This document shows positions 2,912 to 58,493 of a stretch of 64,000 nt of DNA, piece by piece. The DNA is from Opitutales bacterium. GTDB taxonomy: Bacteria > Verrucomicrobiota > Verrucomicrobiia > Opitutales > T3Sed10-336. The first letter of the stretch is position 1; each line of letters starts with the position of its first letter. The notes under the pieces were generated by a model. It was not told where the DNA came from. It made no database searches and saw only the letters and a program-made list of their open reading frames with translations. The stretch is taken from positions 24,395 to 88,394 of the forward strand of contig JAIUMY010000002.1 in the NCBI GenBank assembly GCA_022565335.1, read 5' to 3'. A program made the translations under genes and the position numbers.

Positions 2912-5029
2912 ATGGCACCGCGAAGAGCAATAGCATTTCCAGCCTCCCCCATACCACCTCATAGGCTTTCCCGCGATGAAACTGAATCTGGAAATAACGG
3001 GGCCGCCGAAAATCTTTCTCCGAACGAAGCCCCCCCCCCAAGTTCTCAAGCCCCCATGCATTTTTCGATGGAGACCCTTCAGTTTGCCATCCATGAGGAT
3101 TGGTCCATCTGTTCGTTTTCCCCCGAAGCCCGCAAACAATTTTATGCGGACTTGAATAGGGACCCCCCTCCTTCACGGTCAAAATGGAATTTGCGCGAGT
3201 TATTAGGACGCACCGAACCCGCTTGGCTTAGCGATTTACCGAAATCAGCAGGGACCCTTCTCCAAGGGGACCGTATTTTCCTACCCTGGGATGTTTCCCG
3301 TAAAGCCCATGGAATGGGATGGTCGGTTTATGCCCTGCCATGTGGCAGAGACCTTTTTAGCATAACCCTTACCCCCACCATGTGTCCAAGCGGCGAAGCC
3401 AAACTGGCGGAAAACTCACTCTCCTTCGATGGCGCGGGCATACAGGAAGTTGTGCGCGAACTCTTCCTGCGGACCCAACAGCAGGAAGCCCGCTTTCAGT
3501 TCTTCGTCCGGCACCTGCCGGGGGCTCATTTCAAGCAGGATACTTCGTATCGTTTTACCCTGATCAACTCGGCGCTGGAAGAATTACTGGGGAACGAACC
3601 GCTGCGGGAATTAAGCGAAGAGGGACAGTGGCTGGATTGGGTACATCCAAACGACCACGAAGAGCTTCTGCGGAATCTTAAACGCTGTAAATCAGCGAAC
3701 CTCCCCTCCTCCTGTCGCTTCCGCTTACTTCTTCCGGACGGTGACCGGGTGTTGCACCTGATGGAACTGCGTATTCCAGTGCGCGGAATTGACGGCTCCT
3801 TGAATGGATACGAAGGGCTTTGGCTGGACCTGACCCGTGAGGAGCTGGCCCAACAGCATTTGCAGCATTCCGCCTGGAAAGACAGTTTGGCACAAATCTC
3901 AGGAAGTTTGTCCCATGATTTCAACAATATGCTGACCGGCTTGGTGTCCCTGTCCGAACTGATGATGATGGATCTCAAGGAAACCGATGAACACTATGAA
4001 ATCGCCAGTCTCATCAAAAGCACCACCAATCAAGCCAAGGAACTCAGCGGTCGGATTATTTCCCTAAACCGGGAAGAGCGCGGACGTCCCCAAATGTGCA
4101 ATCTGGCCGAACTGGTTTCCGCGCAGTTGGATTTGATTCGGATCGTCCTCCCTAAGGACACAACCATCAAACTGGACATCCCGGAAGAGGAGTTCCCGGT
4201 GCGCATGGATATGGTGTCGCTGCGACGGATTCTGGTAAATTTCGCGACCAACGCCCGCGATGTCCTGGAATACAAGGGAACCGTAGAGCTTAAGATTCGT
4301 AAGGTTGATTTTTCCACCTACGATTGCTCCTGCCTGGTCTCAAACCATTGCCAACGCAAGGGGGAGGCAGTTGAGTTTGTATTTGCCGACAACGGTCCTG
4401 GCATTCCCCCTGAAATCATCAGCCGGATCTTCGGGGCCTATTTCTCCACCAAAGATTGCACAACCTCTTCAGGCTCTGGTTTGGGACTCTATTGTTTAAC
4501 TCAATTTGCCCGCGACAATCATTTCGATTACGGGGTCCGCACCCAAATGGGCGAAGGGACCGAAATGGTTTTGATCTTCCCCCTGCTTTGCGAAGATGAT
4601 GAGCCAACCGGGGAAAGCGAGGAAGAATTGAATCTGAACGGCTCCTTTGCCGAACCACCGGTGGCCCTCTACGGCGTCTCAAATTCAGCAACAAATGCGG
4701 TTCTTGCCGGCTTGCGGAGGCAGGGAATCGAAATTTGCGAACTCTCCGATGAAACCGATTTGAAAGATTGGGTGGAAAAGCAAACCGAAGTGCCACGAAC
4801 TCTGCTGATGGCCTTCGCCTATCATGATCACAAGAGAGCTCGCCGCACTTGCGAGTCGCTCGAACTCGACGCTCCCGGACTACAGGCTATTCTTTCCCTG
4901 CAGGGGTTGGATCCTGAACATTTCAGTGATTTGATCGGGGAAAAATTTGATTCCCTAATGATGGCAAACGCCAAACCCTCAGCCAATGTGAAAAAGATTG
5001 TGACCCACCTGAATCCCGCGGCCTCATGA
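2912..5029 (+). CDS. Soluble PAS-domain sensor histidine kinase with receiver-like C-terminal tail
   Basis: H-box SHDFNNMLTGL, N-box NFATNARDV, G1 DNGPGI, G2 GSGLGLY. A PAS-like segment lies upstream (WVHPNDHEELL...RFRLLLPDG). No hydrophobic TM span is seen. The true start may be an internal ATG (3056 or 3068). Confidence 0.8.
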   Translation: MAPRRAIAFPASPIPPHRLSRDETESGNNGAAENLSPNEAPPPSSQAPMHFSMETLQFAIHEDWSICSFSPEARKQFYADLNRDPPPSRSKWNLRELLGRTEPAWLSDLPKSAGTLLQGDRIFLPWDVSRKAHGMGWSVYALPCGRDLFSITLTPTMCPSGEAKLAENSLSFDGAGIQEVVRELFLRTQQQEARFQFFVRHLPGAHFKQDTSYRFTLINSALEELLGNEPLRELSEEGQWLDWVHPNDHEELLRNLKRCKSANLPSSCRFRLLLPDGDRVLHLMELRIPVRGIDGSLNGYEGLWLDLTREELAQQHLQHSAWKDSLAQISGSLSHDFNNMLTGLVSLSELMMMDLKETDEHYEIASLIKSTTNQAKELSGRIISLNREERGRPQMCNLAELVSAQLDLIRIVLPKDTTIKLDIPEEEFPVRMDMVSLRRILVNFATNARDVLEYKGTVELKIRKVDFSTYDCSCLVSNHCQRKGEAVEFVFADNGPGIPPEIISRIFGAYFSTKDCTTSSGSGLGLYCLTQFARDNHFDYGVRTQMGEGTEMVLIFPLLCEDDEPTGESEEELNLNGSFAEPPVALYGVSNSATNAVLAGLRRQGIEICELSDETDLKDWVEKQTEVPRTLLMAFAYHDHKRARRTCESLELDAPGLQAILSLQGLDPEHFSDLIGEKFDSLMMANAKPSANVKKIVTHLNPAAS

Positions 5030-5256
5030 TTAGGATGAGTTAAGCACAAAAACCATGACCCAGCCGATTGAGGAGCGCATCGCCGGATGAAGTAGCCTCC
5101 CCCCAATAAAAGAACTCGGAAAACCTGATCGCCAGCTTCCAAAGGGATAGCTTTCCCTGCAAAGCAAATTTCAGGATGCCATAAAGACTTTAAGGAAAAA
5201 AATGCCTAGCGCCCTCAAGCCGTCGTTAGCCGAAATCTTAGAAATATTTTTTCGAA

Positions 5257-5266
5257 ACCTATAGGT
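5257..5266. promoter_or_regulatory. Perfect 10-bp palindrome ACCTATAGGT about 80 bp upstream of the predicted flgB +1 (candidate activator site)
   Basis: The sequence is self-complementary on direct reading. Its position relative to the sigma-54 promoter at 5315 fits an enhancer-binding-protein site. Confidence 0.3.
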
Positions 5267-5314
5267 CTTTGTTTAACAGAGGTTTATGTCTTTGAAATCC
5301 TGAAAAATCTTAAT

Positions 5315-5330
5315 TGGCACATTGTTTGCT
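5315..5330 (+). promoter_or_regulatory. Sigma-54 (RpoN) -24/-12 promoter of the flgB operon
   Basis: TGGCAC-ATTGT-TTGCT matches the consensus TGGCAC-N5-TTGCW at every fixed position. It lies directly 5' of flgB. Confidence 0.8.
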
Positions 5331-5342
5331 ATACATCTGCGC

Positions 5343-5729
5343 ATGATCGAAAGCATGTTCCAATCCGCAAATCTCCAAGCAACAAAAGCCTTAATGGATG
5401 TTGCGGCGGAGCGCCATAAGGTACTCTCGAGCAACCTGGCCAATGCGGAAACCCCCGGATATCGCCGCATGGAGTTGGATCCTTCCTTTATCAAAACCCT
5501 CCGCACCAGCGTCGCAAACGGTGACATCGGCAGCATCCAAAAGGGAGATATTCGCTTTAGTGAAGACCGCGATCCCAAGCTCCGTGCTGACCACAACGGA
5601 AACAATGTCAGCGTGGATAAGGAATTGATGTTGATCAACGAAAATGCCCTGCGGTACGAGGCGCTGGGACAATTTGCCAGCAGCTCCCTACGCCAATTGA
5701 GTACCGCTATAACCGGAAGACAAACCTAG
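5343..5729 (+). CDS. flgB: Flagellar basal-body rod protein FlgB
   Basis: The N-terminus ends in NLANAETPGYRR (rod-family motif), and the size is about 128 aa. ORF-track start 5322 is rejected because it lies inside the sigma-54 promoter. ATG 5355 is an alternative start. Confidence 0.9.
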   Translation: MIESMFQSANLQATKALMDVAAERHKVLSSNLANAETPGYRRMELDPSFIKTLRTSVANGDIGSIQKGDIRFSEDRDPKLRADHNGNNVSVDKELMLINENALRYEALGQFASSSLRQLSTAITGRQT

Positions 5730-11531: not shown

Positions 11532-12128
11532 ATGAATACATTGATCAAATACTGGTATATTCTGGCCATGGCCTTTGTTCTGAGTCTTCTCACGGGCGTG
11601 GGGTTGGTTTTAATACGACAAGATACCTGGATGCCGGAGGAAACCGAACCGGAAGAGCACATCGCTTTGGAAGAGGGCGATTCCAGCTCTTTTCGCGAGT
11701 GGAATTTCGAGGCTAACAAACTGGAGGATCTCCAACTCAAATTGGATGCCCGCCAAGCTGATCTTGACGCTCGTGAAGAATCCCTGGAGCTCCTCCGGGC
11801 GCAGATTCAAACCGAACACAATGAATTGATCTCCCTACGGGAGTCACTGGATGACATGCGCCGAAGCATGGAGCAGGATTTTATCACCATCGAAGAAGAT
11901 GAACGAACAAATCTCCGACGCTTGGCTTCGATCTACTCAGAAGTCAGCCCGGCGGCCGCGGTCAAAGTCTTTAATGGCCTGGATGACGAAACGATAGTAA
12001 AAATTCTCTCCTTAATGCCCACCGAGTCCTCCGCACGGGTTCTCGGGGTGATGGGCGATTCAAATGACCAACAAATCCTGGAAAGAGCGGCCAGATTAAC
12101 CAGCGACCTTAGAAAGGTAAGAGAATAA
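11532..12128 (+). CDS. MgtE_N-like flagellar protein (YlxF/MotE-like)
   Basis: N-terminal TM, coiled coil, then ASIYSEVSPAAAVKVFNGLDDETIVKILSLMPTESSARVLGVM (MgtE-N/FliG-like repeat). Same slot as ylxF between fliJ and fliK in Bacillus-type fla operons. Confidence 0.6.
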   Translation: MNTLIKYWYILAMAFVLSLLTGVGLVLIRQDTWMPEETEPEEHIALEEGDSSSFREWNFEANKLEDLQLKLDARQADLDAREESLELLRAQIQTEHNELISLRESLDDMRRSMEQDFITIEEDERTNLRRLASIYSEVSPAAAVKVFNGLDDETIVKILSLMPTESSARVLGVMGDSNDQQILERAARLTSDLRKVRE

Positions 12129-12129
12129 G

Positions 12130-13707
12130 ATGAATATGATTTTTCCAACGGAATTCGACCGATCTCCTGCCCGCTTCGCCCCTCGCGAACCAAAAGCATC
12201 AGAACCCTCGGGCTCGAAGAAACCTCAAAAAGCCTTTGCCGACCAACTGTCAAGCTGTTGCAAGGACCAAAAAGGCGTTGCCAAGTCGAAGACCGACGCT
12301 AAAGGAGAAACAAAACAGAAGTCCAAAGCGGAGAATTCCCAGACTTCCGAAAAACCCTCTGCGGAGGACTGTCCCGACAAAGAAATTAAAACGGACGAAG
12401 AGTCTGAAAAGGAAAATGGCACGAAAAAAGCTGTGCATAAAGAAATGGCCTTAACCCACATAGTTTTAAATTTTCCCCGGCATAGCCTGGCTTCGGCGGG
12501 CTCAAGCGAATCGCCCCCTAATTTAAGCCCTGTAAGCGGAGATAAAGGGAAAGAGAAAGGGGCCTCAACACAAGTGGAACAGAAGGATCAAAAGACCTCC
12601 ACAGGAAGAACACCACAAAAGAACAAAGGCGAATCGGCAAATATTGCCCACTCTAAAAGTGAAGGCAAAGAGAAAGAGGCCCTGAGATCAAGAACTCAGA
12701 ACGAACCCAGGGTATCTGCGGGAGAAACAACGCCGAAGAGTAAAGGCCAACGGTCAAATTCTGCCCCCTCTAATGGATCCTTCTCTCCGAACGCCCCGAC
12801 AACAAGGGAGGCGGCCTCCGAAAGCACTGCTACCACAGTCAGGAGAATTGTCGTTCCCCCGTCCGGAGACAAACCTACCGCAAGCTCCCAAATCCGCTTG
12901 AACAGAAGCGCTACTTCCGAAGCGGAAACTGCCAATACCAGGCACCCCAAGGATTTTAACCGGCAGCCTAAAATGCCCCGGGCGACCCCTGCCTCCTCCC
13001 CAGGCCCTTCAAATGAAGCCCGTTCGGCCACCGCCAACTCTGCCGTCGTACCTTCAGTGCATGTTGCTGCTCCCACGGCGACCCCCAACCTCGCCCCATT
13101 GAATTTGAGCTCCGCCGAGGCCGAAGCTCCCCGAAATACCACCCAAACAACAATGCAAAGCTCGGGAAGCTTTGGCCAATCCTCCGGCGAGGGTGATCGC
13201 CATCGCGGGGATAGCCACCAATCCTCCACCTTGCTCGGAAACATTTCCGGCCGAATGGATGGGGCAGCTTCTCAAAAAGCCGAAAACATACGGGTCTTCA
13301 TAAGCCAATTGGATTCCGCTCTGCAAACCATGAACCAGGAAAAGAGTAGCAACATCAAACTGCGGATCAGCCTGGAGCGGGGTGAAGTTATAAGGATTCA
13401 ACTTAGCCTGCGTGGTTCAAAACTCAAGACCTCCATCCACACCGAAAGCGATAATGTCCGCCAACTTCTCCGTTCTTCCTGGTCGGAAGTAAGCCGGGCC
13501 CTATCCGCCAAGGGAGTGGAGGCCGAAATGCCGGAGTTTGATGGCGGATCGGAGAATTCCTCCCACAGGGAAAAGAGTTTTGCCGAGCGGACCGAAGCTG
13601 AATTGGCCCAGCTACAAAGAAACGGGAGAACTTCGGATTCGGCTCAGGATTCCCCCAACAAACCCAATGAACTCCGGGATTCCCGGATTTTTTCACGCAT
13701 TGCCTAG
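12130..13707 (+). CDS. fliK: Flagellar hook-length control protein FliK
   Basis: 525 aa. Long S/P/T/K-rich low-complexity region followed by a C-terminal Flg_hook-like block (IKLRISLERGEVIRIQLSLRGSKLKTSIHTES...). Position before flgD supports the call. Confidence 0.75.
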   Translation: MNMIFPTEFDRSPARFAPREPKASEPSGSKKPQKAFADQLSSCCKDQKGVAKSKTDAKGETKQKSKAENSQTSEKPSAEDCPDKEIKTDEESEKENGTKKAVHKEMALTHIVLNFPRHSLASAGSSESPPNLSPVSGDKGKEKGASTQVEQKDQKTSTGRTPQKNKGESANIAHSKSEGKEKEALRSRTQNEPRVSAGETTPKSKGQRSNSAPSNGSFSPNAPTTREAASESTATTVRRIVVPPSGDKPTASSQIRLNRSATSEAETANTRHPKDFNRQPKMPRATPASSPGPSNEARSATANSAVVPSVHVAAPTATPNLAPLNLSSAEAEAPRNTTQTTMQSSGSFGQSSGEGDRHRGDSHQSSTLLGNISGRMDGAASQKAENIRVFISQLDSALQTMNQEKSSNIKLRISLERGEVIRIQLSLRGSKLKTSIHTESDNVRQLLRSSWSEVSRALSAKGVEAEMPEFDGGSENSSHREKSFAERTEAELAQLQRNGRTSDSAQDSPNKPNELRDSRIFSRIA

Positions 13708-14212: not shown

Positions 14213-15523
14213 ATGGCACTCATAGGATCATTAACCAGCGGCGTTAGCGCCATGCAGGGCTTCGTCAGAGGGATGGAGGTCATTGGCAACAATATCGCCA
14301 ACTCAAAAACCACAGCCTTTAAACGGCAGCGCTTGGGATTCAGCGATAGTTTTTCGAATACCCTTCGCGATGCCTCCCCAGGGGGCGCCAATGTCTCCAG
14401 CCAAGCACCTATCCAGATCGGTTCAGGGACAAACCTGAGCTCCACCACCAAAATCTTTGATCAGGGCTCGGTTGGAGCTACCGGAGTCTCCTCCGATCTG
14501 GCGATTGTCGGGGAAGGTTTCTTCCGCGTTATCGACCCCGCCAATGATAACCAGTTTCTAACCCGCAACGGCTCCTTTCGGGTCGATAGTGAAGGGTTTC
14601 TCGCAGACCAAACCGGCAAGCGCGTGTTAGGCCTGACGGGGGGCTCTTCAAACCAAGCCCCGGACACCATCGCCCCGATCCGCATCGATCTGGCAGAAAG
14701 CGTAAAAACCAATCCCGACGGAGATCCGGTGGATGAACAAAACCGGGTTATTCTTGATGATGGCACCCGCCTTGAAGAGAATGCAACCGGCGATTTATTC
14801 CGCGTTAACGAGGAAGGCGACCTGCTTGACTCCACGGCTGCGGCGGCTGCGGACAGTTTTGTCTTGCAAGACATTGGCGGCACGCCCGCACGGGCAGTCT
14901 TCGACACCACGGACGAAGTCCGCTACTTGCAGGACGACCAGGGCAATTTCATTGATGGCAATGGGGCCGTAAGTGCAACCCCGGTGCCATGGGACCCCGG
15001 TTCTCAACCCCAAGCCGTTATTGGTGATACCGAAGCTTCGGCCGCTCTTTGGGAGGCAACCAATGCCTTTCAACCAAATATTGCCGAAGCAGACCCCAGT
15101 GACCCAAACCAGTTCCAACTGGCAATTCAGTCCTGGGCGGTAGGTCCTACCGGAGACTTGACCCTCTCCCTGAATGATGGTTCGTCCTACACCCGGGCCA
15201 AGGTGCTCACCCAGTCAGTGAGTGATCCTGACGCCCTTACCTCTGACGGCAGCGGATTATTCACCGGAATCCAGAACGCTGGTCCAAGGGGCATGGAGAC
15301 CTGGGATATTGGCAACACCATTTCCTCCGCAAACCTGGAACAACACTCTCCCGGCAGCCAGGGTTTGGGTTTCATCCAAGGAGGATCGCTCGAAGGCTCG
15401 AACACCGACCTGACCTTTGAGTTCTCGGAAATGATTACGACGCAGCGTGCCTTCCAAGCCGGTTCAAGAGTAATCACGGTATCCGATGAGATGTTGCAGG
15501 AAATTATTAACCTGAAACGATAA
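14213..15523 (+). CDS. flgE: Flagellar hook protein FlgE
   Basis: N-terminus GMEVIGNNIANSKTTAFKRQ and C-terminus MITTQRAFQAGSRVITVSDEMLQEIINLKR; 436 aa. Confidence 0.93.
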   Translation: MALIGSLTSGVSAMQGFVRGMEVIGNNIANSKTTAFKRQRLGFSDSFSNTLRDASPGGANVSSQAPIQIGSGTNLSSTTKIFDQGSVGATGVSSDLAIVGEGFFRVIDPANDNQFLTRNGSFRVDSEGFLADQTGKRVLGLTGGSSNQAPDTIAPIRIDLAESVKTNPDGDPVDEQNRVILDDGTRLEENATGDLFRVNEEGDLLDSTAAAAADSFVLQDIGGTPARAVFDTTDEVRYLQDDQGNFIDGNGAVSATPVPWDPGSQPQAVIGDTEASAALWEATNAFQPNIAEADPSDPNQFQLAIQSWAVGPTGDLTLSLNDGSSYTRAKVLTQSVSDPDALTSDGSGLFTGIQNAGPRGMETWDIGNTISSANLEQHSPGSQGLGFIQGGSLEGSNTDLTFEFSEMITTQRAFQAGSRVITVSDEMLQEIINLKR

Positions 15524-18824: not shown

Positions 18825-19592
18825 ATGGTGTTTCCCGACTCAGTCACAATACTTTACGCCACCGGGGTGTTTTTCCGTGCCGGAACATTCCTCTTTCTTC
18901 TTCCCCTCCTGGGTAGACCGGTTCCGATACAGATCCGTATAGCCATGGCCGTATTCCTAAGCTACAGCGCCGTCCTGCTAATCCCCCCGCCAGAAGGGCT
19001 GGCCATGTTCACCCATTGGTCCAGCTTGCTGGCCTTTGCCTTGGTAGAGAGTTTTTTAGGCTTTTGTATGGCCTTGGGCGTCCTGCTCCTCTTTCACCTT
19101 GTGCAAACCGCTGGAGAGCTCATTTCTTCACAAATGGGATTGATGCAAAGCAATATCCTAAACCCGATGAGCGGCTCACAGGAATCCGTGTTGGGAACCG
19201 GATTAATGATGCTGACCCTGGCCATGATCTTCATCCTGGATGTGCACCACGAAATTCTTTACGGATTTTTACAGAGCTTGCATATTGCCCCGGTGGGAAC
19301 AGTTCCCATGGATGGCCGAAATGTAGAGTTTGTCCTTTATGAAACCGGCAAAATATTCCTCATCTCCATTCAAATGGCCGCCCCGATCATTGCCGTCAAC
19401 TATATCGTCACACTTTCCTTTGCCTTTTTAGGAAAAATTATTCCTACGATGAATGTCTTAATTCTTAGCTTTAGCGTGAGGCTAATGCTAGGGTTCCTTG
19501 TTTTAACGCTTGTCTTCTATATGCTGGCACAATTGTTGCTGCGCTTCATTTCGTCAACCCCTGAGCGAATGTTGCAATTTCTGCCTTTTTAA
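18825..19592 (+). CDS. fliR: Flagellar export gate protein FliR
   Basis: 255-aa polytopic protein between fliQ and flhB. Confidence 0.88.
   Translation: MVFPDSVTILYATGVFFRAGTFLFLLPLLGRPVPIQIRIAMAVFLSYSAVLLIPPPEGLAMFTHWSSLLAFALVESFLGFCMALGVLLLFHLVQTAGELISSQMGLMQSNILNPMSGSQESVLGTGLMMLTLAMIFILDVHHEILYGFLQSLHIAPVGTVPMDGRNVEFVLYETGKIFLISIQMAAPIIAVNYIVTLSFAFLGKIIPTMNVLILSFSVRLMLGFLVLTLVFYMLAQLLLRFISSTPERMLQFLPF
19525..19540 (+). promoter_or_regulatory. Sigma-54 -24/-12 promoter inside the 3' end of fliR, upstream of flhB
   Basis: TGGCAC-AATTG-TTGCT is a perfect match to TGGCAC-N5-TTGCW. The predicted +1 (about 19551) lies 72 nt before the flhB ATG. Confidence 0.65.
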
Positions 19593-23947: not shown

Positions 23948-24189
23948 ACCGTTACTTTTTTATCGGAGGATTCCTCGGGTTTACACTGTTGTTCGCGATC
24001 TCCATTTACTCGGGAGCAAGCATCCATGTGGTCTTAAGAAACGCGATGGTCGGATGCCTCCTTTTCGCATTTTTTTTCCATTATTATATCAACCGTGTGG
24101 CGCAAATTTATCTGGAATCCCGCTTGCGCCTAATGGAAGAAGCACGGCAGCAAGAACGCGAAAGACAAAAGGAGGAACCAAAGTCATGA
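23944..24189 (+). CDS. 81-aa two-TM protein with charged C-terminal helix, uncharacterised (occupies the usual flhG slot)
   Basis: MNRYFFIGGFLGFTLLFAISIY...MVGCLLFAFFFHYYI...ESRLRLMEEARQQERERQKEEPKS. ATGA overlaps with the flhF stop and with the fliA start. The ORF-track upstream extension overlaps flhF. Confidence 0.6.
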   Translation: MNRYFFIGGFLGFTLLFAISIYSGASIHVVLRNAMVGCLLFAFFFHYYINRVAQIYLESRLRLMEEARQQERERQKEEPKS

Positions 24190-24977
24190 GCGGCGAAGCA
24201 ACAGCCAAACAGATCAGCGATGCCTATTCCAATGCCAAGCGTTCAGAACCAAAAGTGCAGGAGCGCATGAAGGCTTATGCCCTTAAATATTTACCGATCG
24301 TTAAAAGCGAAGTGCTGCGATTCAAAATGCGAGTTCCCAAACATATCGAATTCGAGGAATTACACGGGGTTGCCATATGCGGATTGATGCGCGCCTTCGA
24401 GCGCTACCAGGAAGGAGACGAACGCTTTGGGATCTATGTCCGGCAACGGGTTCGGGGCGCCATCCTCGACGAACTTCGCAGCCTCGACACCATGTCGCGG
24501 ACGATCCGCAAAAAAGCGCGGCGCTACGACGAAGCAATCCAAAAGGTCGAGCAGCGGGAGGGACGAATCGCCACGGAAGACGAGATTCGCAATGAACTGG
24601 GCCTCGGCCCCAAAGACTTCGATAACCTTCTGGACCAACTTCGGCCGGTCACTTTTTTCTCCTTGGACGATGTCAATAGCGAATCGGATTCCGCAGCCCT
24701 GGCCGAGCGAGTCGAGGATCAAAAAACCCCCTCTGCAGTGGAGTCTTTGGAATCACAGGAATTGTTTACCCTCATTCGAGAACGACTCGAACTCCTGCCG
24801 GAAAAACAAAAAAAGATTTTACATATGTATTATTTCAAAGACTTTAGACTTGCGGAAATCGCACAAGTCTTTAACATTTCGGAAAGTCGAGCTTGTCAAT
24901 TACATGTACAAGGGGTACGATTTTTAAAAGCTGCGCTCAGCAAACAAATGCGATCTGAAAACCCTACTCCTAGATAG
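24186..24977 (+). CDS. fliA: Flagellar sigma factor FliA (sigma-28 family)
   Basis: Sigma-70 regions 2-4 (YLPIVKSEVLRF..., RLAEIAQVFNISESRACQLHVQGVRFLK). Start chosen at the ATGA overlap (M45 of the ORF-track frame). Confidence 0.88.
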   Translation: MSGEATAKQISDAYSNAKRSEPKVQERMKAYALKYLPIVKSEVLRFKMRVPKHIEFEELHGVAICGLMRAFERYQEGDERFGIYVRQRVRGAILDELRSLDTMSRTIRKKARRYDEAIQKVEQREGRIATEDEIRNELGLGPKDFDNLLDQLRPVTFFSLDDVNSESDSAALAERVEDQKTPSAVESLESQELFTLIRERLELLPEKQKKILHMYYFKDFRLAEIAQVFNISESRACQLHVQGVRFLKAALSKQMRSENPTPR

Positions 24978-25848: not shown

Positions 25849-26661
25849 ATGGCAGCTGGTGGTGGTGGCGCATGGAAGGTCGCGGCAGCCGACTTTTTTA
25901 CTGCTATGATGGCACTCTTCATGGTTTTGTGGATTTTAGGCTCCGAACAAGAGATGCTAGAACAATTACAGGAGTATTTCCGCAATCCTCCCAGCCCCTT
26001 CACCGAGCGGTCCGGCAAGTTCCCAGTGGAAATGGGGGATTTTTCCGGACGCAGCGCTACGGATGCGGAAGAGGCTTTTTTTGACCGGATTGACCCTATC
26101 ATTCTGAAAGGTATCGTTAATGAATTTAATCGAATTCTGCAAATGGAGGCAACACAGGATGAGGTTCCCCCAGTCGATATCACCATTACCTCCGATGGTC
26201 TTCGGGTCTCCCTTTTTGATCGCAAGGACACTGCCCTGTTTCAAGCCAACCATACCGAGCTAACCCCTTGGGCAAATTTCGTGACCCAAAATCTGGCTTG
26301 GTTGATATCCCGCTATCCTTTTGAAATAATTGTTGAAAGCTACACCTCGGAAACCCCTGCCGAAGAAAGTGACCTTATGCAGCCCGGCGATACCGCTTGG
26401 GAACTTTCCACCCGACGCGGCAACATTTTCCGCCAACGGTTGCAATTCTACGCCAATGAACAGTTGAATTTTCGTTCGGTCGTTGGCTACGGACCCGATT
26501 CTTCTTTTTCCGAACAAGAAATTGCCCGAGGAAAAAGCAACCAGCGGATCGTTTTGTCTCTTTCTCTCGCCAATCCCCAACAACTACCAGACTTTTCCGA
26601 GGTAGGCGATGACTTGCGGGGGCCCGAGATTACCCCGCCAGAGGAGCTAAACGAACAATGA
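25849..26661 (+). CDS. motB: Flagellar stator protein MotB
   Basis: N-terminus AWKVAAADFFTAMMALFMVLW carries the conserved Asp in the TM segment. C-terminal OmpA-like region (AWELSTRRGNIFRQ). Confidence 0.88.
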   Translation: MAAGGGGAWKVAAADFFTAMMALFMVLWILGSEQEMLEQLQEYFRNPPSPFTERSGKFPVEMGDFSGRSATDAEEAFFDRIDPIILKGIVNEFNRILQMEATQDEVPPVDITITSDGLRVSLFDRKDTALFQANHTELTPWANFVTQNLAWLISRYPFEIIVESYTSETPAEESDLMQPGDTAWELSTRRGNIFRQRLQFYANEQLNFRSVVGYGPDSSFSEQEIARGKSNQRIVLSLSLANPQQLPDFSEVGDDLRGPEITPPEELNEQ

Positions 26662-26909
26662 GCCAATCGACCGGTAAAAATTTCCCGAAGGAACAGAGTA
26701 ACCTTGCCAAACCCTCTGAGTTCCAACCATACGCCACCGCGCTAAAGATTCAGCAAGGTAAAAATTCAGCCAAATCCGGGGGCCCTGAAGAGGACTCAGG
26801 AAAGAAAAAACCTAAGGTTCAAGTCGTTGATGAAGATGGTATTGTGAAAAAAATACGGGTCACATGTTCGTGCGGAGAACTCATAGAAATCGATTGTTCA
26901 TATGATTAA
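26658..26909 (+). CDS. 83-aa hydrophilic protein with C-terminal CxC-x8-C motif, uncharacterised
   Basis: ATGA overlap with the motB stop. Disordered K/E/S/G-rich N-terminal part, then VVDEDGIVKKIRVTCSCGELIEIDCSYD. No family is recognised from memory. Confidence 0.5.
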   Translation: MSQSTGKNFPKEQSNLAKPSEFQPYATALKIQQGKNSAKSGGPEEDSGKKKPKVQVVDEDGIVKKIRVTCSCGELIEIDCSYD

Positions 26910-26918
26910 TTTTGTTTT

Positions 26919-26934
26919 TGGCACACTTTAGGCT
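26919..26934 (+). promoter_or_regulatory. Sigma-54 -24/-12 promoter of the flgF operon
   Basis: TGGCAC-ACTTT-AGGCT: the -24 hexamer is perfect and GG-N10-GC is kept. It fills the 36-nt gap between stop 26909 and the flgF ATG 26946. Confidence 0.6.
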
Positions 26935-26945
26935 GTGCTAAAAGC

Positions 26946-27686
26946 ATGGAAACTGGACTTGTAACGGGAAGCCGCCAAATGATGATGCTGGAAGCCTGGC
27001 AATCGTCAATCGCCGATAATTTAGCGAACGCATCCACCCCGGGCTTTCAGAAAACTTTATTTGCCGCCAGCGGAGCCCCTCAAGGCCCGCAATCCACTGT
27101 ATCCATTGGTACCGACGAACAAAAACAATTGATTTTGCCGGAAGGACGGGTCTCCCAATCTTTCAGCAACGGGCCCATACGTAACACCGGAAACCCCCAC
27201 GACTTCGCCATAAAAGACGGCGGCTTTTTCGCGCTCACCACTCCCACCGGCGAGCGCCTTTTCTCAAAAGACGGGGAATTTCGCGTCAACACGGATGGGG
27301 TTTTGGTAAACAAGATGGGCTATTCTGTCGATGTCGATGGGGCGGAGCTGAATATTGACTTACAGCAAGGGCCGGTCACCGTGACCCGTGATGGCAGTGT
27401 AAACCAAGAAGGTCAAAGCCTCGGTCGCATCTCCGCCTTTTCGTTCTCGCAACCAAACCAGTTGATTCGGGTGAGCGGCAGCTATTTTTCCGATCCGGGA
27501 AATGCCGGGCAAACGCAAATAGAAGAACCCACTATCCTCCAAGGTCATTTGATGGGCAGTTCAACCGAAGCGATCAAGGAAATGGTCAACATGATTCAAG
27601 TCTCACGAGCCTACGAAATGAGTCAGAAAGTCATCCAGGAAAATGACGAACGACTCAACCAGGCAATCCAAGCTTTCAGTGTATAG
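26946..27686 (+). CDS. flgF: Flagellar proximal rod protein FlgF
   Basis: IADNLANASTPGFQK near the N-terminus and MVNMIQVSRAYEMSQKVIQ near the C-terminus. Confidence 0.9.
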   Translation: METGLVTGSRQMMMLEAWQSSIADNLANASTPGFQKTLFAASGAPQGPQSTVSIGTDEQKQLILPEGRVSQSFSNGPIRNTGNPHDFAIKDGGFFALTTPTGERLFSKDGEFRVNTDGVLVNKMGYSVDVDGAELNIDLQQGPVTVTRDGSVNQEGQSLGRISAFSFSQPNQLIRVSGSYFSDPGNAGQTQIEEPTILQGHLMGSSTEAIKEMVNMIQVSRAYEMSQKVIQENDERLNQAIQAFSV

Positions 27687-56447: not shown

Positions 56448-58493
56448 TTGCGCCCTCCCATTGCCCACGAGATGGACTTTTTCGAGGCCCAGGAACAGGC
56501 TAAAAAAAGGACCGTGCTCCTCGCGGGTCTCTTTGCTACGGTGGTGGTCATCATCACCGCCGCCGTCTATGCGGCCGTCTTTTTCACCCTCGATCTGACC
56601 GGCCTCACCACCGACTATATGGAGGCTCGGCAAAGCCGGTGGTTCGACCCATCACTCACTCCGCTGGTGATCCTTTCCTCGCTGGGCATTATGGCGATCG
56701 GAAGCCTTGTCCGCACTTACCAATTGCGCGAAGGGGGTTCCTCGGTAGCCCTCATGCTGGGCGGTGAATTGGTCGCCGACCGTCCGGACGACCCCAAAAT
56801 GCAACGTCTCCTCAATGTCGTCGAGGAAATGGCCATCGCCTCCGGGGTTCCCGTACCCGCCACCTATATCCTGCCGGAAGAAACCTCAATCAATGCCTTT
56901 GCCGCCGGACACTCCCTCGACGATGCCGCCATCGGCGTCACCCGCGGGGCCGTGGATCAGCTCTCCCGCGACGAATTGCAGGGAGTGGTCGCCCACGAAT
57001 TCAGCCATATCCTCAATGGCGACATGAAGCTCAACATCCGCCTACTCGGTTTACTCAACGGGATCCTCATGTTCTATGTTTTGGGATCCATCTTCTGGCG
57101 GTTCTTCTTTTACTTCATGTTTCCCTCCCAAGCCGATCGTCGCTACGGCGGCTCCTCCCGCGGAGGAGGGGTTTATTTTGGCGGCAGCTCCGGCGGCCGA
57201 AGCCGCAACCGTGGCGGCGGCGGGGGCAAAGGCGGCGGCGGGGGAGGCATTATCATTGCGATTGTCGTCCTAAGCACCCTCCTGGTGGTCATCGGCCTTA
57301 TCGGACTCTTTTTTGCCCGCCTCATCCAAAGCGCCATTTCCCGGCAACGCGAATACCTCGCCGATTCCGCCGCCGTCCAATTTACCCGCAACCCCGAAGG
57401 CATCGGCGGAGCCCTTAAAAAAATCGGGGGCCTCCACCGTAAAAGCTACCTGCGCAACGACCACGCCGAAGAAGCCGGACACCTCTTTTTTGGCCGCGTC
57501 GCCGCCCTGAGTATGGGCGGCTTGACCAACACCCATCCGCCCCTCAAAAAACGGATTCGGGCCATTGACCCCTCCTTCGATGGCCAATACCCGAAGGTCA
57601 AAACCATCCCCGCCACCCGTCCGAAAGTTTCGGATACCGCCTACGAACCCAAACGCAAAAGTCCCAAAACGCAAAACCCTCCCATTATTCGCCCGGAAGT
57701 CCTCATGGCGGGCATGGGCATTCTCGAACAAAGTCAACTTGAGCGAGCCCAAAACCTGCTCGAAAAAATCCCCCGGCTGGTGCGCCAGGCCGCGCACGAA
57801 CTTACCGGAGCCCGTGCCATCGTTTATTTTACCTTATTTCAATCGGAAGGCGATACACGGGCCCGGCAGATGGACCTTCTAAAGGAAAAAGCCGATCCCT
57901 TGGTCTTCCGTGAATTGACCAAACTGCTCCCCCACCTTTCCCAACTCTCTGCCGGGCAAAGGTTGCCCGTTATCGATCTTTGCCTCCCCGTCCTTCGCCA
58001 ACTCTCTCCCGACCAATGGATTCGTTTCCGCGATAACATCAACCTCCTTGTTGCCGCCGACGAACAAGTAAACCTTTTCGAGTTCTGCGTTAAAAAAATC
58101 GTCTTCCGCCAACTCGGCCAGCATTTCGAGGGTGAAAAAGGCGGCCCTCCCCGCTACTTCAGCATCAACGCCCTTTCGGAGGAAATCTCCATACTCCTCT
58201 CGGCCCTCAGTTACGAGGGCGAGAAAGACACCCGCAAGGCCTTCGGCGCCGCCTTGGGCCGGGCCGGAGGCTTACGCAATGAACTGCACCTCCTCCCCCG
58301 GGAACATTGCACCATGGATAAACTCACCGATGCCGTCGATAAAATCGCCGACTCCCTCCTCCCCATTCGCCGAAGAGTCCTGGAATGCTGCGTGTATTGT
58401 GCCGTCGCCAATCACGACATCGCCCCCGGAGAACGACAGCTTCTCCGGGCTATCGCCGAGGCCTTCGCCCTTCCCGCCCCTTCGGTTCTCTGA
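56448..58493 (+). CDS. M48-family (HtpX-like) zinc metallopeptidase with Gly-rich insert and long helical C-terminal extension
   Basis: HEFSH (HEXXH) at VVAHEFSHILNGD, downstream REYLADSAAV, several TM spans, and a G-rich run GGSSRGGGVYFGGSSGGRSRNRGGGGGKGGGGGG. About 290 extra C-terminal residues. ATG 56472 is an alternative start. Confidence 0.8.
   Translation: MRPPIAHEMDFFEAQEQAKKRTVLLAGLFATVVVIITAAVYAAVFFTLDLTGLTTDYMEARQSRWFDPSLTPLVILSSLGIMAIGSLVRTYQLREGGSSVALMLGGELVADRPDDPKMQRLLNVVEEMAIASGVPVPATYILPEETSINAFAAGHSLDDAAIGVTRGAVDQLSRDELQGVVAHEFSHILNGDMKLNIRLLGLLNGILMFYVLGSIFWRFFFYFMFPSQADRRYGGSSRGGGVYFGGSSGGRSRNRGGGGGKGGGGGGIIIAIVVLSTLLVVIGLIGLFFARLIQSAISRQREYLADSAAVQFTRNPEGIGGALKKIGGLHRKSYLRNDHAEEAGHLFFGRVAALSMGGLTNTHPPLKKRIRAIDPSFDGQYPKVKTIPATRPKVSDTAYEPKRKSPKTQNPPIIRPEVLMAGMGILEQSQLERAQNLLEKIPRLVRQAAHELTGARAIVYFTLFQSEGDTRARQMDLLKEKADPLVFRELTKLLPHLSQLSAGQRLPVIDLCLPVLRQLSPDQWIRFRDNINLLVAADEQVNLFEFCVKKIVFRQLGQHFEGEKGGPPRYFSINALSEEISILLSALSYEGEKDTRKAFGAALGRAGGLRNELHLLPREHCTMDKLTDAVDKIADSLLPIRRRVLECCVYCAVANHDIAPGERQLLRAIAEAFALPAPSVL

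Follow-up and report, generated by a model that had tools for sequence, protein, structure and literature searches.

The stretch of DNA analysed here in full, 64,000 nucleotides (nt) long and hereafter called the window, comes from the metagenome-assembled genome of a marine Opitutales bacterium (Verrucomicrobiota) and carries a large block of flagellar genes headed by flgB. The present report deals with the short element at 5315-5330, directly before flgB, which has the form of a promoter for sigma-54 (RpoN), and with the start codon that follows it. From 5343 to ~34771, a distance of ~29 kb, every gene lies on the + strand and is flagellar. The order begins with flgB, flgC, fliE, fliF, fliG, fliH, fliI, fliJ, an FlbB-like gene, fliK, flgD, flgE, fliL, fliM, fliO, fliP and fliR, continues with flhB, flhA, an flhF-like gene, fliA (which encodes sigma-28), motA, motB, a small Cys-rich open reading frame (ORF), flgF and flgG, and ends with flgA, flgH, flgI, a flgJ-like gene, flgN, flgK and flgL. 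The element stands on the + strand at the head of this co-directional cluster, in the 314-nt gap between a histidine kinase gene, which ends at 5029, and flgB. The features that matter first are the following:

5315-5330, + strand: sigma-54-type flgB promoter, composed of the -24 element TGGCAC (5315-5320), a 5-nt spacer and the -12 element TTGCT (5326-5330)
5341-5343, + strand: predicted transcription start, 12-14 nt past the C of the -12 element (5329), i.e., at the A of the ATG or up to 2 nt ahead of it
5343-5729, + strand: flgB coding sequence of 128 aa with ATG 5343 as start, recognized by Pfam Flg_bb_rod and by the N-termini of its homologues

The letters of the window at 5310-5345 are ttaatTGGCACattgtTTGCTatacatctgcgcATG. 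As had been claimed in an earlier reading of this DNA (the original prediction), all ten fixed positions of the RpoN consensus TGGCAC-N5-TTGCW are matched at 5315-5330, and the GG and GC doublets are 10 nt apart. The window contains exactly three matches to this pattern (5315 on the + strand, 19525 on the + strand and 14974-14989 on the - strand), as against a mean of 0.10 in dinucleotide-preserving shuffles, none of which reaches three in 100 trials. The excess over chance that had been proposed, three matches against an expectation of ~0.12, is therefore borne out; the begin of the minus-strand match, which had been set at 14975, is 14974.

No sigma-70-like promoter and no terminator-like site were found in the gap between the kinase gene and flgB. 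In Clostridioides difficile, the flgB leader is under the control of a cyclic di-GMP (c-di-GMP) riboswitch. A riboswitch or structured leader was considered for flgB also in this case and was rejected, as the interval 4950-5450 gives no Rfam match at E <= 1, a c-di-GMP aptamer included, and the predicted folding of the 5′ region is about that of shuffled sequences (z = -0.56).

Conservation of the element and the start of flgB

Upstream regions of flgB were gathered in three ways for about 15 lineages of Opitutales, namely, by exact-protein look-ups (loci L082-L084 and L099), a scan of GTDB genomes (L002-L007, L050, and L056), and a metagenome scan (L085-L090); the related loci derive from TARA and other metagenome samples. 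The homologues of FlgB and FlhB carry the taxonomic labels Opitutales, Puniceicoccaceae or Verrucomicrobiota. In nearly all of these loci (the window, L082-L090, L002-L007, L056, and L099), the motif GGCAY-N5-NTGCT occurs directly before the flgB ATG, the exception being L050, whose -24 element reads GTGCAC. The spacer and the flanks differ from locus to locus while the motif stays, and the flanks cannot be aligned. Representative flgB promoter regions are as follows:

L082: TGGCATgcctaGTGCT
L084: TGGCACatatgATGCT
L085: TGGCATagctgGTGCT
L088: TGGCATaggcgGTGCT
L090: TGGCACagaggATGCT
L002: cGGCACatgccCTGCT
L007: TGGCACatcccCTGCT

When the window's clade (six lineages) is aligned with MAFFT, TTGGCA, TGCT and ATG are the only blocks without any variation in the stretch comprising the promoter and the start codon. 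The genes preceding flgB vary with the lineage and may be a kinase, a sulfatase with a ferritin, CheR/CheB or the ATPase of a type II secretion system. Since the upstream neighbours vary while the element stays, the element travels with flgB, and its retention across lineages is what is expected of a functional sigma-54 promoter and is beyond the reach of chance. On this comparative evidence, the element at 5315-5330 is a genuine, evolutionarily conserved sigma-54-type promoter, itself of an ordinary kind, and its original assignment to flgB is supported by the conservation across Opitutales. As to the local arrangement, two extra genes (~230 aa and 113-116 aa, without family matches) are inserted between the kinase gene and flgB in two close relatives (L082 2418-3505 and L084 4934-6033). 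The window does not contain them, and the module made of an upstream dyad (described below), promoter and ATG is nonetheless unchanged.

The distance between the promoter and the start codon was expressed as the number of nucleotides between the C of the -12 element and the A of the flgB ATG. It is 13 nt in seven lineages and 12 nt in four:

13 nt: window, L082/83, L084, L085/86, L088/89, L090, L002
12 nt: L005, L050, L056, L099
20-21 nt: L003, L004, L006
29 nt: L007

The meaning of this spacing depends on where flgB begins. A homology search retrieved 141 relatives of FlgB, most of them of 126-128 aa. The residues with which they begin, M-[IL]-[ED]-x-x-F-x-x-x-N-Y, line up with the Met that 5343 encodes and are kept down to homologues of 35-40% identity; almost all the homologues begin at a Met aligned with this position. 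Since the homologue N-termini align in this way, the alignment indicates that flgB is read from ATG 5343 and not from 5322, 5355 or 5394. The original prediction rightly held that flgB cannot start at 5322, within the promoter, although the codon there is TTG and not the ATG that it described; of the two starts that it left, 5343 is correct and 5355 is not, as the latter codon is Leu or Ile in many homologues.

The strongest competitor is a reading in which the promoter is real and translation starts downstream, at ATG 5355 or 5394. In that case the message would have an ordinary leader of 14 or 53 nt, and the promoter would only appear to abut the gene. The automated gene call on an identical Logan contig does start at 5394, yielding a protein of 111 aa, and the sequence GAAAG is present just before 5355. 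Moreover, in most of the bacteria studied, leaderless translation is the less common mode (PMC5243855). However, the shorter call loses the conserved N-terminus, the Met at 5394 is replaced by Leu in many homologues as the Met at 5355 is by Leu or Ile, and the strictly fixed gap of 12-13 nt to ATG 5343 would be left without an explanation. We regard a downstream start as improbable. The start at 5343 is also a gain for annotation, as automated callers placed the starts of flgB, flgF and fliK inconsistently among the relatives.

With flgB starting at 5343, the geometry of the promoter becomes informative. If the C at 5329 is set at -12, +1 falls canonically on 5341, two positions before the A of the ATG. 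In Campylobacter jejuni, differential RNA sequencing placed the end of the sigma-54 motif GGaa-N6-tTGCTt 8-13 nt upstream of mapped transcription starts (PMC3847290), a range which covers the A of the flgB ATG here. The gap of 13 nt between the -12 C and ATG 5343 thus leads to a predicted start at 5341-5343, and the flgB mRNA is probably leaderless or nearly so, with a leader of at most 2 nt. This prediction from promoter geometry agrees with three further properties. The flgB start codon is always ATG, with a pyrimidine always at position -1; no Shine-Dalgarno- (SD-) like motif is present; and the 5′ end is not notably structured. Every instance at flgB, at flgF, inside fliK and at a flagellin-like gene (described below) combines an ATG start with the lack of an SD-like motif. 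Most genes of the cluster (5343-34771) likewise have no SD-like motif upstream. The scarcity of such motifs in this interval suggests that translation initiation in this organism is largely SD-independent.

The upstream dyad and other sigma-54-like sites

A promoter of the sigma-54 type is expected to have an upstream activator sequence, and two sites come into question for this role in the window:

5194-5206, no strand: candidate activator site GGAAAAAAATGCC, a copy, with two mismatches, of a conserved dyad, centred 116-117 nt upstream of the -24 GG
5257-5266, no strand: palindrome ACCTATAGGT, the enhancer candidate of the original prediction

The first belongs to a 13-bp dyad conserved upstream of the flgB promoters, with the consensus GGCAAAATTTGCC (GGCAA-N3-TTGCC). 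Every one of the six lineages in the window's clade has a copy with no more than two mismatches, centred 111-119 nt upstream of the -24 GG. In L002-L007 and L056, the dyad lies 94-96 nt upstream of the GG, and in L050 its distance from the ATG is the same; L002, L005 and L050 have perfect copies. Between the two classes of distance there is a difference of ~21-22 bp, or about two turns of the helix. According to shuffled sequences, the chance per locus of such a dyad (<=2 mismatches in a positional window of 9 nt) is ~0.003, which amounts to ~3e-13 for the five further lineages.

The palindrome is indeed present at 5257-5266, as had been stated, but its role as a site for an enhancer-binding protein (EBP) could not be upheld and the candidate was rejected. 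The window contains 50 perfect palindromes of 10 bp as against ~62 expected with uniform base use, and ACCTATAGGT is not palindromic in any relative; of its letters, the central TA alone is part of an AT-rich block of loose conservation. At the thresholds of the search, no inverted repeat was reported in 5030-5345. The dyad at 5194-5206 is the better candidate for an enhancer or activator site, as judged by its conserved position. More speculatively, the AT-rich block, which is situated between dyad and promoter, might be a site of DNA bending.

Upstream of flgF and of the element inside fliK, no dyad was found at a distance like that at flgB; in the case of flgF, only some lineages have weak matches, 241-249 nt upstream. 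Perfect copies of GGCAA-N3-TTGCC in the window are limited to 12636-12648, in fliK and downstream of its internal promoter, and 57955-57967, far from the flagellar genes.

Besides the element at flgB, four sites of the same type deserve attention within the cluster:

12417-12447, + strand: fliK-internal promoter TGGCAC-gaaaa-aaGCT, followed by 12 nt (13 nt if counted from the -12 C) and then the in-frame ATG 12445 (Met106)
26919-26948, + strand: flgF promoter TGGCAC-acttt-AGGCT, whose -12 C is separated by 12 nt from the flgF ATG 26946
19525-19540, + strand: exact match to the consensus, located in the 3′ end of fliR and 83 nt ahead of the flhB ATG 19623
14974-14989, - strand: exact consensus match antisense to flgE

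The first two are weaker, conserved sites which the original prediction had missed. Inside fliK, the arrangement TGGCAC-N5-NTGCT-N12-ATG is shared by L083/L094 and L084/L095, and the part of FliK around it is otherwise poorly conserved; L096 is without the arrangement, and L097 has instead an intergenic TGGCAT-N5-TTGCT, 35 nt before flgD. The fliK-internal element could yield a separate transcript comprising the C-terminal part of fliK, flgD and flgE, or a shorter isoform of FliK. At flgF, TGGCAY-N5-NNGCT is located 11-14 nt from the ATG in L093-L097, i.e., in six lineages including the window. The flgF starts were placed inconsistently by gene callers, too early in L094 and too late in L095.

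A further instance is found outside the window. Locus L098 belongs to the same organism and extends ~1.9 kb past window coordinate 1, on the minus strand. There, at 3452-3568, TGGCAAggtttTTGCT precedes a flagellin-like gene, 12 nt from its ATG, and the dyad-like GGCAAATTTTTCA is situated 82 nt upstream of the GG of this promoter. A gene for an HDOD-domain protein lies just before the flagellin-like gene. The design in which a promoter abuts an ATG therefore occurs at four transcription units (flgB, flgF, inside fliK, and the flagellin-like gene), and its repetition beyond flgB makes it look like a regulon-wide architecture.

The two remaining exact matches are of a different character. The site at 19525 is kept in L093 and L094 and becomes TGGCTC, TGGTCC and TGGTTC in L095, L096 and L097, respectively. 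It coincides with the conserved codons L-A-Q-x-(L/M)-L of FliR, and constraint on this protein accounts for its conservation; the dyad-like GGCAAAATATTCC, 173 nt upstream of the site, is itself coding. As an internal promoter of flhB, the site is ambiguous, being neither confirmed nor rejected. An antisense promoter at 14974-14989 was rejected, as it has no counterpart in flgE of L083, L084, L096 or L097, where the codons differ; from this comparison, the match is probably fortuitous. Two dyad-like sequences at 15055-15085, GGCAACCAATGCC and ACCAAATATTGCC, lie 74 and 92 nt upstream of the antisense match on the minus strand, which is probably a coincidence.

Intragenic sigma-54 binding sites have been reported in Escherichia coli and Salmonella by chromatin immunoprecipitation. 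The sites at 19525 (in fliR), 12417 (in fliK) and 14974-14989 (antisense to flgE) resemble them in lying within coding sequence. A difference is that the conservation of the site at 12417 includes an in-frame ATG at promoter distance, whereas 14974-14989 is not conserved.

Other genes of and around the cluster bear on its regulation or its makeup:

2912-5029, + strand: histidine kinase with PAS, HisKA and HATPase domains, by Pfam and NCBIfam matches
24054-24977, + strand, within the cluster: fliA, the sigma-28 gene
11532-12128, between fliJ and fliK: 198-aa protein with a sub-threshold match to FlbB (NCBIfam NF047368, E = 1.7e-13) and to MgtE_N
26658-26909, between motB and flgF: ORF of 83-89 aa with a C-terminal Cys-x-Cys...Cys motif (VTCSCGELIEIDCSYD)

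An orthologous kinase gene precedes flgB in L082-L084, while in other Opitutales the upstream neighbours are unrelated. The kinase is possibly associated with the flagellum, and its membership of a flgB circuit is putative. The FlbB of NF047368 is a spirochaete flagellar collar protein. The Cys-rich ORF at 26658-26909 has no Pfam or NCBIfam match, and the ORF itself is present in all the relatives examined.

Proposed mechanism and relation to known systems

The best explanation of these observations, to which we give a probability of about 0.8, is that 5315-5330 acts as a sigma-54 (RpoN)-dependent promoter heading the ~29-kb flagellar cluster of a marine Opitutales bacterium. The holoenzyme of RNA polymerase with sigma-54 would form a closed complex on the -24 GG and the -12 GC. 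An ATP-dependent EBP, most likely bound at the dyad 5194-5206 (about -140), would loop across the AT-rich intervening DNA and open the promoter. Transcription would then begin at 5341-5343, giving a flgB message which is leaderless or has a leader of at most 2 nt, and translation would proceed from the 5′-terminal AUG without an SD sequence.

Several observations weigh against this explanation or parts of it. Neither an rpoN gene nor an EBP gene was detected in the window, L098 or the Verrucomicrobial loci collected; the search comprised Pfam and NCBIfam scans of the window ORFs and a six-frame scan of all loci for GAFTGA and GESGTGK. The dyad copy of the window is the weakest of the set, with its two mismatches, and dyad matches at this level are common, with 63 in the window as against 44 expected, so that only positional conservation carries weight. 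The gap of 20-29 nt in L003, L004, L006 and L007 means that the leaderless design is not universal. Finally, the -12 element at flgF and inside fliK is only NNGCT and not TTGC. As regards the sigma factor, it has been reported that Verrucomicrobia often possess RpoN (PMC3372290). In eight Planctomycetota loci (L009, L023, L026, L030, L031, L033, L034, and L037), an EBP gene containing GESGTGK...GAFTGA is located ~1 kb directly upstream of flgB.

It could also be supposed that GGCAY-N5-NTGCT is not a promoter but an element of a longer transcript, such as the site of a translational regulator or a structure near the start codon. The motif lies 13-28 nt before the ATG, the usual place of translational operators, and the failure to find genes for the sigma factor and the activator in the DNA scanned would be in keeping with such a role. 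On the other hand, the conserved positions are exactly those contacted by sigma-54 (GG and GC 10 nt apart, within TGGCA and TGCT), while the letters between them vary freely. The region contains neither an Rfam family nor a sigma-70-like promoter, and the element is also found 20-35 nt from ATGs (in L003-L007 and before flgD in L097), which fits a promoter better than an operator. A role within a longer transcript is accordingly very improbable. A chance match without function is hardly credible, for although single exact matches do arise by chance, as the antisense one at 14974-14989 seems to have done, only 0.10 are expected per window and retention at orthologous positions in ~15 lineages effectively refutes this idea.

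Starting from a sigma-54-dependent promoter at flgB, a wider proposal can be made, namely, that the flagellar genes of Opitutales form a sigma-54 regulon of leaderless transcripts. At flgB, at flgF, at the flagellin-like gene and inside fliK, the -12 box is 12-13 nt from the ATG and transcription would start at most 2 nt from the AUG. The fliK promoter could be the source of a FliK shortened at its N-terminus (from Met106) and of a flgD-flgE transcript of its own, and all of these units would be driven from the dyad enhancer GGCAA-N3-TTGCC. This proposal is tentative, and we consider it slightly less probable than its negation.

The sigma-54 control of flagellar genes is textbook knowledge in Proteobacteria. 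A search of the literature found no description of sigma-54 flagellar control for Verrucomicrobiota. In polar flagellates, rod and hook genes that depend on sigma-54 are a familiar feature; Campylobacter, Helicobacter, Vibrio and Pseudomonas provide well-described promoters of this kind at flgB and at other rod and hook genes, together with a flagellum-associated two-component system (PMC7064773, PMC3930126). As in C. jejuni and H. pylori (FlgSR), V. cholerae (FlrBC) as well as P. aeruginosa (FleSR), a -24/-12 promoter precedes flgB and other rod or hook genes here, the gene of a PAS-type cytoplasmic histidine kinase is nearby, and the cluster includes the sigma-28 gene fliA for late genes. 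Unlike in these polar flagellates, flgB here heads a long order similar to that of Bacillus and spirochaetes (flgB flgC fliE fliF ... flhB flhA flhF fliA). The resemblance to the Bacillus fla/che operon places the genes of the MS-ring, the C-ring and the export apparatus behind the same promoter. A second difference is that the promoter abuts the start codon, fixed at a leaderless distance.

The candidate dyad has not been matched to any known activator. In Caulobacter crescentus, FlbD is a sigma-54 activator which acts on dyad ftr enhancers ~100 bp upstream of flagellar promoters (PMC3930126). The likeness to FlbD and ftr concerns symmetry and position, a short dyad at a fixed distance of ~100-120 bp upstream; unlike in Caulobacter, no flbD-like gene is present in the cluster.

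Leaderless mRNAs are common in Actinobacteria, Deinococcus, Leptospira and archaea, with a few in C. jejuni, and the predicted flgB message would be alike in its 5′ end at most 2 nt from the ATG, the lack of an SD sequence and the obligatory ATG. Every leaderless gene reported in C. jejuni carries, at a fixed distance from the ATG, a sigma-70 -10 box (PMC3847290), whereas the element at a fixed distance here is a sigma-54 -12 box. In a full-text search of the literature, no description of sigma-54-driven leaderless flagellar transcripts was found.

The element at flgB being of an ordinary kind, the interest of the locus lies in the conserved geometry, predicted to be leaderless, and in the newly defined dyad, a candidate enhancer. 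The locus and its relatives provide a regulon model for marine Opitutales, with a promoter, a candidate enhancer, corrected gene starts and operon boundaries. If transcript mapping proves it true, activator-dependent transcription would be coupled to leaderless translation across several flagellar operons of these bacteria, which would be an unusual pairing.

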